A DNA stretch of 64,000 bases, from contig OZ241849.1 in the NCBI GenBank assembly GCA_965203165.1, positions 1,281,267 through 1,345,266 of the forward strand, read 5' to 3'. The notes beneath the pieces are model-generated. The model did no database searches. It was given only the letters and a program-made list of their open reading frames with translations, and was not told the DNA's origin. The translations under genes were made by a program, and so were the position numbers. Origin of the DNA: Dehalococcoidia bacterium. Its GTDB lineage: Bacteria; Chloroflexota; Dehalococcoidia; Bin125. Positions 14,645 to 22,712 of the stretch are shown piece by piece. Position 1 is the stretch's first letter. Each line of letters opens with the position of its first letter.

Positions 14645-15574
14645 TCATGTACGCCGCCCTCTCCGTCGAGCGCGGGTGGTTGCGCGGCGGCGACCTTCGA
14701 GCAGCTGTCGCTGTAGCTCGCGCTGTGGCGCGGCGTTGTCCAAGACCAGGATTGGGCTCGTCAGATCGACGCCGAGATCGACTGCGAGATCGGCCGCTAC
14801 GTCGTGCAGAATCTCGACGCCGATGCTCTGCCGACCCATACGCTGAGCTACGCGGAGCGTTGTCCCGGAGCCTACGAACGGATCGAGTACGACATCACCC
14901 TCGTCGGTGAACAGCTTGATGAACCACTCCGGCAGCCATTCGGGATACGCCGCTGAGTGACCGGTGTTGTGCGCAACCGGCGATCCGTAGAGGACATTGT
15001 TCGGCAGAACGGTGTCTTTGTCAGTCCAATACGCGATCTTCCGTCCGACGCCGCTGCCGGTGGCGCTGTTGTGGCGTGTGAGGTCTGCGTCGCCCAGCTT
15101 CTTCAGCCGAGCCTCCGTCCAGTCGCCGATTGGCACTCGCACCGCGTCCTGGTTCATTTTGAAGTTGCGCTCTTTGGTGAAATGCAGGCAGCGCTCCCAA
15201 GCGTCGCGGAACCGGTTTCGCCAGTAGCCGGGCGCGCTGGTCGTCTTGTGCCAAACGTACTCCTCGACCCACCTGAATTCGCACTCGCTGCGCAGCGCTT
15301 GGATCAGCTCGAGCACGTAGGTGTGGCGCTCTCCGTCTACGCACTTTTCTTTGATGTTGAGTACGAACGAGCCTGTCGGCGCGAGGACGCGGTAAAACTC
15401 GTGCGCCCGCGGAATGAACCACTCGACGTAGTCGTCCGGCCGAATGCCGCCGTAGGTTCGCTTGCGGGCGTCCGCGTAGGGTGGCGACGTGACGATCAGG
15501 TCGACGCTGTCGCTCGGAACGTTGGTGAGCGCGTCAAGGCAGTCGCCCGCGAATAGCGTGATCGAGTCCGGCAT
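14645..15574 (-). CDS. DNA methyltransferase, beta-class N4-cytosine or N6-adenine
   Basis: Motif IV DLIVTSPPY precedes motif I DPFVGSGTT (IV...I order, beta group). Sits in a lower-GC segment adjacent to a putative endonuclease. Confidence 0.8.
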   Translation of the reverse strand: MPDSITLFAGDCLDALTNVPSDSVDLIVTSPPYADARKRTYGGIRPDDYVEWFIPRAHEFYRVLAPTGSFVLNIKEKCVDGERHTYVLELIQALRSECEFRWVEEYVWHKTTSAPGYWRNRFRDAWERCLHFTKERNFKMNQDAVRVPIGDWTEARLKKLGDADLTRHNSATGSGVGRKIAYWTDKDTVLPNNVLYGSPVAHNTGHSAAYPEWLPEWFIKLFTDEGDVVLDPFVGSGTTLRVAQRMGRQSIGVEILHDVAADLAVDLGVDLTSPILVLDNAAPQRELQRQLLEGRRRATTRARRRGRRT

Positions 15575-15585
15575 CGCGATCCTGC

Positions 15586-16410
15586 CTATCGCCCCAGATG
15601 CACTTGCTGAAAGAGATCGCGGCAGAACTGCACTGCTTCGGTGTCGACTTTGTCGGACATGTCCGGCGACAGGTGGTCTTGCATTCGATTTGCGAGCTGC
15701 GCAAAGACCAGATCGAGGGCGTCGTCCACACCGGAAGCGATGGCGTAGAACGTTCGCCCGTCAACGCGCTCGATCCTCTCGCCGACAGCGGCGGGCTGCT
15801 GTCCTGGGCGGCGCGGCAAGATCGTGACCAGATAGCCACGGCCGCTCGACCCCCATCGTTTGGCGCGCAAGAACTGAGAGATGTTGTCGAGCACCTGCTT
15901 CGTGGTGTCGGCATTCATCGTGTTGTGCTTGTTCTTGACCTCCGCCGCGATCCGGGCGTCGTCGTTGAACAGATCGACGAGGCCGTCCTGCTCGGTCCAG
16001 CCCGGCATCGCACCGAGCACGTTCTGGTGAAAGCCGCCGATTGCACTCGCGATTGCCTGCGCCAGCGACCTTGAGCCGTCCAGACGATTGAGATCGTCCA
16101 CACCGCCGCCAAGAACGCAAGCCTGCGCGAGCAGCGCGAAGGGGTCGCGCACATTCTTCTCAAGTCGGGCGGGGATCTCGCGGTCGGCCTCGCCAATTCG
16201 GGAGATCAGCGTTCGGATGGCTGCGTCAAAGTCGGCGTCGCTGATGAACGGGAGCTGTCCGCTTCCACCTGGATCTCGCGGGGGGGGGGGGGGGGGGATA
16301 CGACGAGCGGACGAGCTCACGGCGGACTCCTCGATCGGGCCGCGTACCATACACAGCGGGCCGCCAGGGGCCAAGGCCCGACGGCGGGCCGGGAGAGAAC
16401 GCAGCCGCAC
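15586..16410 (-). CDS. Putative type II restriction endonuclease (PD-(D/E)xK-like); N-terminus contains an 18-nt poly-C/G tract
   Basis: DLFNDDARIAAEVKNKHNTMN fits D...(D/E)xK. Co-oriented directly upstream of the methyltransferase. Family assignment (possibly Eco47II-like) is uncertain. Confidence 0.45.
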   Translation of the reverse strand: MRLRSLPARRRALAPGGPLCMVRGPIEESAVSSSARRIPPPPPPRDPGGSGQLPFISDADFDAAIRTLISRIGEADREIPARLEKNVRDPFALLAQACVLGGGVDDLNRLDGSRSLAQAIASAIGGFHQNVLGAMPGWTEQDGLVDLFNDDARIAAEVKNKHNTMNADTTKQVLDNISQFLRAKRWGSSGRGYLVTILPRRPGQQPAAVGERIERVDGRTFYAIASGVDDALDLVFAQLANRMQDHLSPDMSDKVDTEAVQFCRDLFQQVHLGR

Positions 16411-16442: not shown

Positions 16443-17228
16443 ATGCCCAACGACTGGCACGAGCTTTTGGATGACCTTGCGGCGGAGCAGCGGTATCTGG
16501 ATGATGCGCTGGCTGCGACTGAGGATGCGGTGTGGGAGCGCGCGACGCCCTGCGAGGGGTGGCTGGTGCGGGATGTGATCGCGCATCTGGCGGAGGTTGA
16601 CGACCATGCGGCGATCGTGGCTTCGGGCGCGCCGCGCTATCCGGACGGGGGCGGGCGCTCGGCGGACGGGCTGCGCTCGCAGGGGCAGGATGAAGCGCGG
16701 CAGATGACGCGGGCGCAGCTGGTCGATTGGTGGCGCGGCGCGCGGGGGCGTCTGGAGGCGGCGCTGCGTCCGCTCGACGCGAAGCATCGGCTGCCGTGGG
16801 CGGGCCCGCCGATGAGCGCGCGCTCGTTCGCCACGGCGCGGCTGATGGAGTGCTGGAGCCACGGGCTGGACGCGCTGGACGGGGCGCAAATCGCGGCGAT
16901 GGACAGCGACCGGCTGCGGCACATCGCGCATCTGGGCTGCATCACGCGGGCGTTCGCCTACCAGACGCGGGGGCTGGAGCCGAACACGGAGCCGCTGCGG
17001 GTCGAGCTGGCGCTGCCCTCGGGCGCGGCGTGGGCGAGCGGTCCGGAGGATGCGGCCAACCGAATCAGCGGCGCGGCGGGCGGTTTCTGCCGCGTCGTGA
17101 CGCAGCGGATTCACTACCGCGATACGGACCTGCAATGGCAGGGCGAGGCGGCGGAGGAGTTTCTGCAGGTGGCACAGGCGTTCGCGGGCCCGCCCGGGCC
17201 GGGGCGGGCGGAGCGGTCGCGGGGGTGA
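16443..17228 (+). CDS. DinB-like / mycothiol maleylpyruvate isomerase N-terminal domain protein (TIGR03083-like)
   Basis: ATPCEGWLVRDVIAHLAEVDDH is the conserved N-terminal motif of this family. Confidence 0.55.
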   Translation: MPNDWHELLDDLAAEQRYLDDALAATEDAVWERATPCEGWLVRDVIAHLAEVDDHAAIVASGAPRYPDGGGRSADGLRSQGQDEARQMTRAQLVDWWRGARGRLEAALRPLDAKHRLPWAGPPMSARSFATARLMECWSHGLDALDGAQIAAMDSDRLRHIAHLGCITRAFAYQTRGLEPNTEPLRVELALPSGAAWASGPEDAANRISGAAGGFCRVVTQRIHYRDTDLQWQGEAAEEFLQVAQAFAGPPGPGRAERSRG

Positions 17229-17234
17229 GGGCAC

Positions 17235-17860
17235 TTGGCGCCCTCGCGCACGCCCCAGATCCGTCATACCCGCGCTCGCCGCGGGTATCTCGCCGTGTTC
17301 GGCACTAGGCCATGTTCTCGCCCCCTTTCCGTCATTCCCTGCGCAGGCAGGGTTGAGAGGCGAGGACGGGACTTGGGTGCAGCGCAGCGAGATACCCGCG
17401 GCGAGCGCGGGTATGACGGAAGGGGCGCGGGTATGACAGAAGGGGGCGTAAGGGAATGACGGGCTTTGCGCGGGCTGCGGGCGTGTGTGTTTTCCGCTCT
17501 CTTCCTCCCTTCGGAGCGTTAGGGGGTGCGAGAGGGCTTTGCGCTGTGCTCGGCGAGATACCCGCGGCGAGCGCGGGTATGACGGAGGAGGCGGCGCGGG
17601 TATGACGGAAGAGGGGGGGCAGGTATGACGATATGGGCCGCAGGGGAATGACGGGGCTTTGCGCGGAGCTGCGGGCGTGTGTGTTTTCCGCTCTCTTCCT
17701 CCCTTCGGAGCGTTAGGGGCGCGAGAGGGCTTTGTGCTGTGCTCGGCGAGATACCCGCGGCGAGCGCGGGTATGACGGATCTTTTTGCGCGGGTATGACG
17801 GAAGAGGGGGCGCGGGTATGACGGAGGAGGGGCGCGGGTATGATGGACCTCGTGTGAACA
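17235..17860. repeat. Repeat cluster D: one inverted core then three forward cores with about 180-bp period
   Basis: Inverted core GTCATACCCGCGCTCGCCGCGGGTATCTCGCC at about 17262; forward cores at about 17390, 17565 and 17747. A conserved TGTGTGTTTTCCGCTCTCTTCCTCCCTTCGGAGCGTTAGGGG appears twice between cores. Confidence 0.85.
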
Positions 17861-17864
17861 GGCG

Positions 17865-19076
17865 CTAGTCGATTTGGGCGCGTTGGAGGATGGCGCGGTT
17901 GATTAGGCCGTCGATTGTTGGGGTGGTGTGAGTGATTTGGATCCGGCTCATGAACGCTCGCGGGCCCAGCTCGATGAAGAGGCTGCCCAGCAGTTCGTCG
18001 GCGAAGCCGCTGGAGACCATTGGGATGTCGGAGAAATCCAGTGTTACGCTGCGGTTTTCGCGTAGGTGTTGCTCTACGGTGCCGCGCACTCGTTGGCCGC
18101 CTGCTCTGGAGCCGACTTCTTGCGCGGCTTCGGTGGCGATCGACAGAGTTGCGGCGGCGGCTTCGTTATCGGGGCGCGGCTCGTGGGATCGTTTTGGGAA
18201 TGAGAGCGCGCGCGCCAGCAGATCCGGGTGATCGACGGCTATTTCGCAGCGCACTACTGTGCCGCTGTAGCGGATTCTTCGTTTGCGCGTTTTGTACTCG
18301 TCCGGTCCGGAGCGCGAGGCGTGCAACAGGGCGAAGCCGGAGTTGAGCTCGAATTCGCCGCCGGAGAGTTTGGCGATGCGGAAGCTTCCCAGCAGGCCGT
18401 CTTTTGCGACTGCGCGGATCAGCGCCTGCTCGTGGTCGCGGATACGCATGCTGCCGGCGAGTCCGCCGCCGCCGTCGGCGATGACCAGCTCGACCCGCTT
18501 CGATTCCTCGTTGAGCGTCGTTTGGGCGAAGCCGCCGGTCGGAGATTCGGCGTGGCGCAGCACATTGTCGGCCAATTCGTAGATCGCCCACTCCAGCGCC
18601 GCGGCGTCGGCGCGCTCGATGCCCGGCTGCGACATCGCAGCGGCCAGCGCGTCGTCGACGATCGGCGCGATTTCCGCCGCCGTGGTGAAGCGCCGCGCGG
18701 GCGGGCGGGCGTCGGCGAGCGGCTGGAGCGGGTAGCGCTCGGGATTGATGAAGTGCGCCCAGTTGGACGCGATCAGCTGCTGCTTGAGCGCGTCGTCCTG
18801 CGGCTCGACCAGCTCGAAGCTCGCGCCGGCCGTCTCGCGGTAGCCGGCCACGACGGGCAGCAGCGGCAGCATTGCGGCGGGGGTGAGCGCCTGACATTGG
18901 GCGAAGTCGAGCGTGACCTGTTGGTGCTCGCCGCGCTCAATGGTGTCGAAGACGGCGGCGCGGACGACGCGCAGCTCGTCAAAGCGGCGCAGCTCGCCGC
19001 GCAGCGTGACGCGATTGCCCTCGTGGCCAACTTCGAGCGGCATAGGGACACAATACGCCCCCACCGACCGCCACAC
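17865..19076 (-). CDS. STAS-like / GHKL ATPase (RsbW-type) / C-terminal DUF4325-like fusion protein
   Basis: Central GHKL-like N-box and G1 motifs ELADNVLRHAES...VELVIADGGGGL. C-terminal ...VTLDFSDIPMVSSGFADELLGSLF... is STAS/DUF4325-like. N-terminal ...VTLDFAQCQALTPAAMLPLL... is STAS-like. Confidence 0.5.
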   Translation of the reverse strand: MWRSVGAYCVPMPLEVGHEGNRVTLRGELRRFDELRVVRAAVFDTIERGEHQQVTLDFAQCQALTPAAMLPLLPVVAGYRETAGASFELVEPQDDALKQQLIASNWAHFINPERYPLQPLADARPPARRFTTAAEIAPIVDDALAAAMSQPGIERADAAALEWAIYELADNVLRHAESPTGGFAQTTLNEESKRVELVIADGGGGLAGSMRIRDHEQALIRAVAKDGLLGSFRIAKLSGGEFELNSGFALLHASRSGPDEYKTRKRRIRYSGTVVRCEIAVDHPDLLARALSFPKRSHEPRPDNEAAAATLSIATEAAQEVGSRAGGQRVRGTVEQHLRENRSVTLDFSDIPMVSSGFADELLGSLFIELGPRAFMSRIQITHTTPTIDGLINRAILQRAQID

Positions 19077-21606: not shown

Positions 21607-22308
21607 GTGTTGAAGCCGCATGATCCCGTGCTCACCGAGCCGCGCTACTCCGCGTCCGACGCGGCGCTGATCGCCCGAACACGCAGCCAGAACATCTCGA
21701 ATTGGTTCCGCGGCTACGCACGTGCCGGCAAACAGTTCGCGCCGCTCTTTCCCGACCGCGGGCGCACAGCCGACGCTGCGTTGAAGATCGGCTTCCTGGA
21801 ACTGACCGAGGCGATCGTCGTCGCCCGCTTTCGCGAGCTGGGCGTCCCACTACAGCGCATCCGCGCGGCACGGCAATTCGTCGAGGTCCACTTGGACGCA
21901 GAGTATCCGTTCGCGCACCGCAAATTTAAGGTTCGCGGCGGTCGCATCCTGCACGACTTCGAGAGCAAGCAGCCAGACGCAGGACCGGGGTTGGTGCTGA
22001 TCGACGAAGGCAACGCCGCAGGGCAGATCACTCTTCCCGCCTTGGTGCAGGATGCGCTCGACCTCTTCGAGTACTCGTCGGGCGAAGATGCCTGGGCGGC
22101 GCGGATCCATCCCTGCGGATCTGATGCGCCACTGTCCATCGACCCGCACTTCCGCTCAGGTCAGGTCGTTGTCGAAGAGCGCGGAATCACGGTGCATCAC
22201 ATCGCGGGGCGCTTTCGCGCCGGCGAAACTGTTCCGTTTATCGCGCGCGACTACGAAATCGATGTCGCGTCAGTCAATGCTGCGTTGGAATTCGTGCACG
22301 CGGCATGA
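21607..22308 (+). CDS. VapB45-like antitoxin (N-terminal extension plus C-terminal DUF433)
   Basis: C-terminal FRSGQVVVEERGITVHHIAGRFRAGETVPFIARDYEIDVASVNAALEF matches the DUF433 pattern (G.P.I.GTRI.V..I...G.S.EEI...Y.L....I.AAL.Y). Lower GC than its surroundings. Confidence 0.55.
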   Translation: MLKPHDPVLTEPRYSASDAALIARTRSQNISNWFRGYARAGKQFAPLFPDRGRTADAALKIGFLELTEAIVVARFRELGVPLQRIRAARQFVEVHLDAEYPFAHRKFKVRGGRILHDFESKQPDAGPGLVLIDEGNAAGQITLPALVQDALDLFEYSSGEDAWAARIHPCGSDAPLSIDPHFRSGQVVVEERGITVHHIAGRFRAGETVPFIARDYEIDVASVNAALEFVHAA

Positions 22309-22712
22309 ACATGTTCTTCGACGAAAACATCGGCAGAGGAGTGCCGTTGGCGCTGCGCAACGTGGGCTTTCGAAATGTGCGCTACCTGAGGGAGACATTC
22401 CGAAAGCGTATCCGTCGAGGTGAGCGCATCTACGATCGTGATTGGATCCCGATGGTTGGGCAACAAGGCTGGCTCGCCATCACGGAGGATTTGGCAATCC
22501 TGGACAATGAAGATGAACGTGCACTCCTGCTGGAGCACAACATCGGCATCGTGTTCCTCAAGGCGGCGAACCTGCCAGCCAGCGACGTACTCGCGTTCAT
22601 GCTGCGGCGCATGAAGTGGCTGGAAGCAATCGACCAGCAGCCGCGGCCGTTTGCATATGTCACCGGCTTGCGTGGTCGGGCGACATTGGATCCGCGTGTC
22701 GCAGCGCTCTAA
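22305..22712 (+). CDS. DUF5615-family putative toxin (VapC45-like partner of DUF433)
   Basis: MNMFFDENIGRGVPLALRNVGFRNV matches the DUF5615 N-terminus (M.FL.DEN......L...G..V). Overlaps the upstream gene by 4 nt. GC is about 55%. Confidence 0.55.
   Translation: MNMFFDENIGRGVPLALRNVGFRNVRYLRETFRKRIRRGERIYDRDWIPMVGQQGWLAITEDLAILDNEDERALLLEHNIGIVFLKAANLPASDVLAFMLRRMKWLEAIDQQPRPFAYVTGLRGRATLDPRVAAL

Follow-up and report, generated by a model that had tools for sequence, protein, structure and literature searches.

We examined a window of 64,000 nucleotides (the whole stretch of DNA analysed here) from a Dehalococcoidia bacterium, contig OZ241849.1. On its minus strand, a single gene encodes a STAS-fold domain, a GHKL ATP-binding/kinase domain and a second, DUF4325-type STAS domain in one polypeptide. 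The gene lies between a repeat cluster (17230-17864) and two coenzyme A (CoA)-transferase family III genes. A preliminary description, made from the sequence alone, had placed this arrangement in a 403-residue open reading frame (ORF; 17865..19076), and all the peptide strings it quoted are present there. The single chain stands, but the length does not. The 35 database homologues found in a whole-protein search (390-418 residues, 97% coverage) all begin at Met12 of this ORF ('MP..'). Because they all begin there, we place the true start at the ATG at 19043 (codon 19041-19043) and not at the GTG at 19076. The complete coding sequence is thus 17865..19043, comprising 392 codons and a stop codon (17865-17867). 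The 11-codon GTG-initiated extension (19044..19076) has no counterpart in the homologues and is probably untranslated. Only 65 bp separate the ATG from the start of the divergent CoA-transferase gene (19109). Residue numbers below refer to the 392-residue protein (add 11 for the 403-residue numbering), and all features of the gene are on the minus strand.

The three-domain order STAS-GHKL-STAS(DUF4325) was confirmed by structure prediction, a DUF4325 match and conserved Bergerat-fold motifs. The full-length predicted model had a predicted local distance difference test score (pLDDT) of 84 and a predicted template modelling (TM) score (pTM) of 0.73, with one low-confidence stretch at residues 281-296. 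The N-terminal STAS-fold domain (18729..19043, residues 1-105) is the equivalent of the STAS domain of the kinases VapK and CapK. Its match to Pfam STAS_2 was not significant (E 0.29). The AlphaFold2 model of residues 1-108 (pLDDT 93) recovered only STAS proteins among its top 15 Foldseek matches in the PDB (probability 1.00, TM 0.5-0.7), the best being SpoIIAA (1tid_B, TM 0.65/0.60), RsbV (6m36_D, 0.65/0.70) and MlaB, all with probability 1.00. The domain carries an 'LDFxxC' strand-loop and a conserved 'NWAHF' motif (N94, W95, H97). There is no conserved Ser/Thr at the N-terminus of its helix 2, where 64% of relatives have F/Y in column 54 and the window protein has Thr. By analogy, a STAS domain without an acceptor is what would be expected on the kinase side of CapK or VapK.

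The GHKL (Bergerat-fold) domain spans 18234..18701 (residues 115-270). Its motifs are the N box (E156 and N160, the latter encoded at 18564-18566), the G1 box D190xGxG194, the G2 box G216LxG219 and motif IV, G261-T262. Among 138 family representatives, E156, N160, D190, G192, G216 and L217 are conserved in 100%, G219 and G261 in 98%, G194 in 94% and T262 in 92%, and the window protein has them all. A flexible linker of about 16 residues (18156..18203, residues 281-296) joins the kinase to the C-terminal STAS domain. It is modelled with low confidence (pLDDT blocks of 53-65), varies from 21 to 54 residues across the family and is rich in indels in our 31-sequence family alignment (A1).

The C-terminal domain (17868..18155, residues 297-392) is a VapS-like STAS domain and matches Pfam DUF4325 (PF14213) with E 4e-15 and 55.7 bits against a cut-off of 23 (residues 327-388 of the 403-residue ORF). 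The preliminary description saw no phosphorylatable Ser/Thr at the canonical position of either STAS segment. This was wrong for the C-terminal one. HMMER and hhalign alignments agree in pairing Ser48 of VapS (chain index 66 in the tagged crystal construct) with the second Ser of 'VSSGFADE', which is Ser345 (S356 in the 403-residue numbering; codon 18009..18011). This predicted phospho-acceptor lies within the motif V-S-S345-G-F-A-D-E, where helix 2 of the STAS domain begins. In the full-length model, the predicted helix 345-359 starts at Ser345, the canonical STAS acceptor position. Ser345 is invariant in alignment A1 and present in 97% of the 138 representatives, in which F347 (90%), A348 (96%), D349 (99%) and E350 (100%) are also conserved. 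The chain stops at the position matching VapS residue 95 and so lacks the VapS 94-116 tail. No Pfam helix-turn-helix (HTH) match was found, and the chain runs from a STAS strand directly to the closing STAS domain.

The most informative background is the work of Chambers et al. (EMBO J 2026; PMC13373217). CapK (HTH-STAS-GHKL) is switched on by single-stranded DNA (ssDNA) and phosphorylates a conserved Ser of CapS, a repressor with a STAS and a winged HTH (wHTH) domain. In the VapKSC system, the proposal is that VapK (STAS-GHKL) phosphorylates VapS at Ser48 and thereby frees VapS from the PIN toxin VapC. VapS is a STAS domain with a short tail, and its residues 94-116 block the VapC active site. 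Phosphorylation breaks the CapS dimer and releases VapS from VapC, and the aromatic residue for ssDNA activation is F54 in VapK and W68 in CapK. VapKSC is a toxin-antitoxin/anti-phage system, and CapK/CapS controls adjacent immune operons (PMC13373217).

Searched against PDB sequences, the A1 family profile had one significant match, 9z7o_A ('Escherichia VapS', E 5e-7), to the C-terminal domain. In the same search, the GHKL part gave marginal matches to SpoIIAB (E 0.04) and RsbW (E 0.5) and also to histidine kinases, and CapS structures were not matched. We took the VapK sequence from the AlphaFold source file of PMC13373217 and gathered its family as a second alignment (A3). Compared by hhalign, A1 and the VapK family matched with a probability of 96.8% and E 2.8e-10 over 241 collinear columns across STAS and GHKL. 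Full-length VapS, whose own sequence matches DUF4325 (E 6e-18), matched with a probability of 91.9%, residues 315-384 of the window protein pairing with VapS 18-87. A BLASTP comparison of the window protein with the single VapK sequence was not significant, and the relationship is seen by profile methods only. By profile similarity, the closest characterised relatives are VapK and VapS and not RsbW/RsbV, and the window protein is best described as the fusion of a VapK-like predicted kinase (residues 1-270) with a VapS-like substrate domain (297-392). In E. coli, vapK, vapS and vapC are arranged head to tail with a gap of 4 bp between vapK and vapS. Since vapK and vapS are adjacent there, the fusion constitutes a Rosetta-stone link between kinase and substrate, a pairing that has experimental support (PMC13373217). 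Kinase-STAS fusions of the VapK/VapS type are not mentioned in PMC13373217, and we found none in further literature, in which mentions of DUF4325 were incidental.

We scanned 1.84 billion cluster representatives (50% identity) with the family profile using HMMER. This gave 5,155 matches at E<=1e-3 and 533 at E<=1e-30. Among the best 150 of the 533, nearly all are 400-430 residues long and match end to end, and the handful of shorter proteins appear to be fragments. In this family, fusion is the rule, ancestral and maintained. The orthologues are fused, not split, and in the neighbourhoods examined they do not sit beside sigma-factor or rsbU-type genes. Within the Dehalococcoidia MAG lineage of the window, OZ241913.1 shares ~96% nucleotide and 95% protein identity. 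Relatives at 30-42% identity come from Nitrospirales, Gemmatimonadota/Longimicrobiales, Alpha- and Gammaproteobacteria, Binatia and Acidobacteria metagenome-assembled genomes (MAGs). A subfamily from gut Firmicutes is homologous over its full length (hhalign probability 100%, E 9e-40, 385 columns). A plasmid-borne relative carries the RefSeq label 'DUF4325 domain-containing protein'.

Several further members show variations on this theme. An 855-residue metagenomic protein (P0045) has the STAS-GHKL-DUF4325 core followed by CSD, NusB-like and NUDIX domains at its C-terminus; these could be a fused output/nucleic-acid-binding module or a gene-calling artefact. On the Alicyclobacillus acidocaldarius plasmid NC_013207.1 (H4), a Firmicutes homologue matched positions 750-1700 by tblastn across two adjacent genes, annotated 'hypothetical protein' and 'STAS-like domain-containing protein'. 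This pair may be a naturally split kinase/STAS version. The bin names of many relatives among L011-L057 (SB0661_bin, RHO1_bin, CLI1_bin, Candidatus Palauibacter and OZ/OY chromosomes named by universally unique identifiers) resemble those of marine-invertebrate and sponge-symbiont projects. Together with the occurrence in at least six phyla at 30-42% identity, they hint at habitat-linked horizontal spread, the habitat being read from bin names only.

Within the source Dehalococcoidia genome, the gene is a stand-alone, vertically retained gene. The ratio of non-synonymous to synonymous substitution rates (dN/dS) against close orthologues is 0.2-0.45 overall, with 0.15 for the N-terminal STAS, 0.20 for the GHKL and 0.43 for the C-terminal STAS domain. 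The gene is under purifying selection. No second copy was found in the rest of the window, and a promoter/terminator scan found nothing near the gene. The gene order of this lineage is two CoA-transferase genes, the gene, a PIN_10+DUF433 cassette, an MDMPI-family gene, an Eco47II-type restriction-modification (R-M) pair and a luciferase-like oxidoreductase, the PIN_10+DUF433 and R-M cassettes being present or absent by genome. The backbone differs in a second Dehalococcoidia lineage, where a variable R-M/ParE region lies at a distance of two genes.

In three related loci (L001, L003 and L011), a PIN_10 + DUF433/HTH_66 toxin-antitoxin pair occupies the place (17219-17936) where the window has its repeat cluster. 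The PIN_10 gene abuts the 3' end of the gene in all three and overlaps it in L001 and L011. The alignment of the window to L011 and L001 by blastn ends at 17937-17941, inside the gene. The last 23 codons and the stop (17865..17936) cannot be aligned at the nucleotide level with the 96%-identical relative L011 and mark a putative recombination/indel breakpoint. The C-terminal peptide is ITHTTPTIDGLINRAILQRAQID in the window and VRGANPVIDGLIDRAIMRRVRGE in close relatives, and the family pattern 'IDGLIxRAI' is retained. This suggests an intragenic recombination breakpoint, tied to loss of the toxin-antitoxin pair or gain of the repeats. The repeat cluster itself is ~630 bp long and consists of 2.2 copies of a 193-bp unit, 20-23-bp sub-repeats ('GCGCGGGTATGACGGAAG..') and long hairpins. 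An Rfam scan gave only a sub-threshold MIR8622 match, from a repeat-cluster hairpin.

Two other variable cassettes lie near the gene. A type II R-M pair on the minus strand consists of an N6_N4 DNA methylase (14645-15574) and an Eco47II-family endonuclease (15586-16410). This pair, 1.5 kb from the gene, is also found in L003 and L011 and is missing from L001. On the other side, just past the CoA-transferases, is a second HTH_66/DUF433 + PIN_10 pair (21607-22712, plus strand; PIN_10 at 22305-22712). This segment aligns with L001 and not with L011, where another sequence of about the same length is present.

We profiled gene neighbourhoods for a conserved partner. An all-vs-all BLAST of the ORFs within 6 kb at 47 loci found no shared partner gene; it recovered lineage synteny only, with common enzymes shared by at most 10 of the 47 loci. 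In 22 lineages of the marine-MAG subfamily, the 125 closest neighbouring genes were, by Pfam and PADLOC annotation, mostly metabolic/housekeeping genes. No Pfam family occurred more than three times and PADLOC matches were sporadic. As the preliminary description had stated, the gene stands alone between the repeat cluster and the two CoA-transferase genes, with no sigma factor or PP2C phosphatase nearby; we found none within ~5 kb in the window. None was seen among the 125 neighbours either, in a scan that lists the 25 commonest Pfam families and could miss a single occurrence.

The Firmicutes subfamily is found in variable or mobile, defence-rich regions and has no fixed partner. On a human faecal contig labelled 'Bacteriophage sp.' (MT837999.1; L064, 2029-7648), a 439-residue homologue with the full architecture lies inside a type I R-M operon, between hsdR (ResIII/EcoEI_R_C) and hsdM (N6_Mtase/HsdM_N), with overlapping stop and start codons. 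Among gut metagenome contigs L065-L072, one homologue is carried by a serine-recombinase element and adjoins a SIR2_2 protein and a Zeta toxin, another adjoins ThsA_Macro, and a third sits between a Schlafen-type helicase and an SNF2/NOV_C helicase with DUF1156. Further Firmicutes homologues are neighbours of DUF4379 and GNAT genes or, where serine recombinases lie on both sides, of DUF3800 genes. The frequent location on serine-recombinase elements and these neighbours suggest that the Firmicutes subfamily travels in defence islands. A homologous module also occurs in the PADLOC model PDLC02567 of the defence protein DrmA, whose positions 138-393 (of 1750) match residues 159-400 of the 403-residue ORF (E 1.3e-18). 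In the set of neighbours from the 22 lineages (A4), one ORF, perhaps a second GHKL-DUF4325 paralogue next to the gene in one of the lineages, matches the same model (E 6e-12).

On balance, we think that the gene product is probably the CapK/CapS and VapK/VapS kinase-substrate module in single-chain form, in which a signal-gated kinase would phosphorylate its own tethered STAS domain. At rest, the tethered STAS domain would present Ser345 to the kinase or sit on it, and the surface around Ser345 would make contact with itself, with the kinase domain or with a partner. A signal, which is ssDNA in CapK and VapK, would be sensed at the N-terminal STAS/GHKL interface. The GHKL domain would then transfer the ATP phosphate to the predicted acceptor Ser345, in cis or within an oligomer. 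Phosphorylation would disrupt the resting contact and flip the switch, as in CapS and VapS. Since the protein has neither a wHTH domain nor a VapS-type tail, the output would either act in trans, on a partner whose gene lies elsewhere, or consist in the protein changing its own activity or oligomeric state. The preliminary description had suggested a self-contained, auto-inhibited switch with an RsbW-type GHKL domain. With both terminal segments predicted as STAS folds and the orthologues consistently fused away from sigma-factor genes, a self-contained switch remains the best reading; the RsbW frame is only approximate, VapK being closer.

Several observations weigh against this reading. Our scans of the protein and its neighbourhoods found no phosphatase, output domain or conserved partner gene. 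The kinase domain falls under the Pfam gathering scores, with HATPase_c_2 at E 1e-4 (22.7 bits against 27.4) and HATPase_c at E 7e-3. In the Foldseek search of the whole model, GHKL ATPases (TopoVI-B, Hsp90, GyrB) rank level with kinase-pathway proteins. An 11-residue ATP-lid segment, 'G(G/V)TRDxxxNxG', is missing between K214 and D215 (18399..18404). The segment is 9-11 residues long in 135 of the 138 representatives and missing in three; it aligns with the invariant 'GNTT' of VapK, and its absence is shared by the window clade and a sister Dehalococcoidia clade. Kinase activity could thereby be weakened, lost or altered. Finally, the ssDNA-stacking aromatic (F49/F54 in VapK, W68 in CapK) aligns to Ala52, and from this alignment ssDNA sensing by the window protein cannot be assumed.

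Some of these features would also fit a clade-specific degenerate pseudokinase or GHKL ATP-binding clamp, kept as a scaffold: the deletion of a conserved lid segment, the sub-threshold Pfam kinase-type models and the ATPases among the top structural matches of the whole model. We find this improbable, as all Mg/ATP-contacting motifs and Ser345 are intact in the lid-less clades and the GHKL domain has a dN/dS of 0.20. The shortened spacing of the G1 and G2 boxes, 26 residues, also resembles that in SpoIIAB. We give slightly more credence to an anti-sigma factor of the conventional partner-switching kind that carries its own antagonist, although it too is quite unlikely. Here, the GHKL domain would sequester a sigma factor or other regulator, and the tethered STAS domain would compete for it until phosphorylated. 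Such a protein would follow the domain logic of RsbW/RsbV and SpoIIAB/SpoIIAA. The weak profile matches to SpoIIAB and RsbW point the same way, as does RsbA_anti_sig at E 0.056 in an NCBIfam scan that otherwise and overall gave nothing meaningful, and the fused kinase-STAS protein Rv1364c binds SigF in vitro (PMC7693655). However, the similarity to VapK is far stronger than that to RsbW or SpoIIAB, RsbW has no counterpart of the additional N-terminal STAS domain, which CapK and VapK do have, and neither a sigma factor nor a PP2C phosphatase was seen within ~5 kb in the window or among the 25 commonest Pfam families of the neighbours in 22 lineages.

A different possibility is an autonomous defence or stress effector kinase, in which the C-terminal STAS domain is an auto-inhibitory pseudo-substrate and the triggered kinase phosphorylates host or phage proteins in trans. 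The trigger could be, for example, infection or DNA damage from a nearby restriction system. The setting of the Firmicutes subfamily in defence-rich, mobile regions without a fixed partner and the GHKL-DUF4325 module within the DrmA model are consistent with this, as are the Eco47II-type pair 1.5 kb from the gene in the window and the PIN_10 toxin-antitoxin pairs that flank the locus in relatives. We nevertheless regard it as unlikely. The 125 neighbours of the window's own subfamily are overwhelmingly metabolic or housekeeping genes with sporadic defence matches, the gene keeps its synteny and is inherited vertically whereas the R-M and toxin-antitoxin cassettes are gained and lost, and strict conservation of Ser345 and its motif suits a true substrate better than a pseudo-substrate. 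A VapKS-like control of a PIN toxin, in which the STAS domain keeps the neighbouring PIN_10 nuclease inactive until phosphorylated, was also considered. VapS does inhibit a PIN toxin (PMC13373217), a coupling of DUF4325 genes with a PIN subgroup has been reported (PMC5499597), and PIN_10 genes adjoin the gene in L001, L003 and L011 and lie at 22305-22712 in the window. Yet the window protein lacks the equivalent of the 94-116 tail needed to block VapC, and the PIN_10 genes all lie on the opposite strand and are each paired with a DUF433 gene. The window has repeats in place of the adjacent pair and still an intact gene, and the neighbourhoods in other lineages have no PIN genes. With the tail missing, a dedicated DUF433 partner and a dispensable pair, we rejected PIN_10 control as the main explanation and consider it very improbable.

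A broader proposal goes beyond the single gene, and we make it only tentatively, seeing it as less probable than the single-chain reading of the window gene itself. STAS-GHKL-DUF4325 might be a widespread autonomous phospho-switch that carries a kinase and its only substrate in one chain. It would be a one-gene sensor of stress or infection whose output is its own assembly or binding to an unlinked target. If so, such switches would be spread over hundreds of 50%-identity clusters in Chloroflexota, Nitrospirota, Gemmatimonadota, Proteobacteria, Firmicutes and Cyanobacteria. In that case, CapKS and VapKSC, in which the parts are split, would be either specialised offshoots of the fused module or ancestors of it, and the Dehalococcoidia variant without the lid would have been re-tuned naturally.

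The CapK/CapS and VapK/VapS pairs, known only since 2026, form a modular sensor through which DNA damage leads to the expression of an immune operon or the release of a toxin. A large family of fusions that has no effector, no repressor domain and no fixed neighbour suggests that the module's function may be independent of an adjacent pathway. The fused protein would offer a minimal one-protein system in which to study the gating of the kinase and the effect of STAS-serine phosphorylation. The defence/mobile context in gut Firmicutes against the housekeeping context in marine MAGs fits a blurred boundary between immune and general-stress signalling. For annotation, the gain would be a testable meaning for several thousand 'DUF4325 domain-containing protein' entries.

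Compared with the older partner-switching pairs SpoIIAB/SpoIIAA and RsbW/RsbV, the window protein shares a GHKL Ser kinase with a STAS antagonist, and its N-terminal domain superposes on their STAS proteins (TM 0.6-0.7). It differs in its marginal sequence similarity, its extra STAS domain on the kinase, its fusion and its lack of an associated sigma factor or PP2C; the N-terminal half of the kinase in the window family aligns only weakly with SpoIIAB. A kinase-STAS fusion is not without precedent. Rv1364c of M. tuberculosis (sensor-PP2C-GHKL kinase-STAS), a member of the SigF network, reportedly phosphorylates itself on its STAS domain (PMC7693655). The likeness noted here is one of architecture: both place a GHKL kinase and a STAS domain on a single polypeptide, but Rv1364c has a sensor and a PP2C phosphatase, whereas the window protein has an N-terminal STAS domain, a DUF4325-type STAS domain and no phosphatase. 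The DrmA variant PDLC02567 of DISARM likewise has an N-terminal fused GHKL+DUF4325 module, there within a defence helicase. The window protein carries no helicase or other effector, and no DISARM genes were found in the examined region of the window.

The logic of CapK+CapS is the same: a STAS-GHKL kinase, a conserved helix-2 Ser in a STAS domain and an interface that would be broken. However, the N-terminal HTH of CapK and the wHTH of the repressor CapS are both missing from the window protein, and in place of a downstream immune operon there are CoA-transferase genes and a repeat cluster. The VapKSC system is a three-gene operon, in contrast to the fused parts here and to a gene that stands alone among metabolic genes. 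The window protein lacks the inhibitory tail of VapS, the ssDNA-stacking Phe and part of the ATP lid of VapK, and the window has neither vapC nor a co-oriented PIN gene. Even so, the STAS-GHKL and DUF4325 parts are homologous to VapK and VapS and collinear with them, the N-box Asn and the G boxes are conserved, and Ser345 matches S48. We would class the protein as a fused and effector-less form of the module known from CapK/CapS and VapK/VapS; its architecture follows naturally from the 2026 work.

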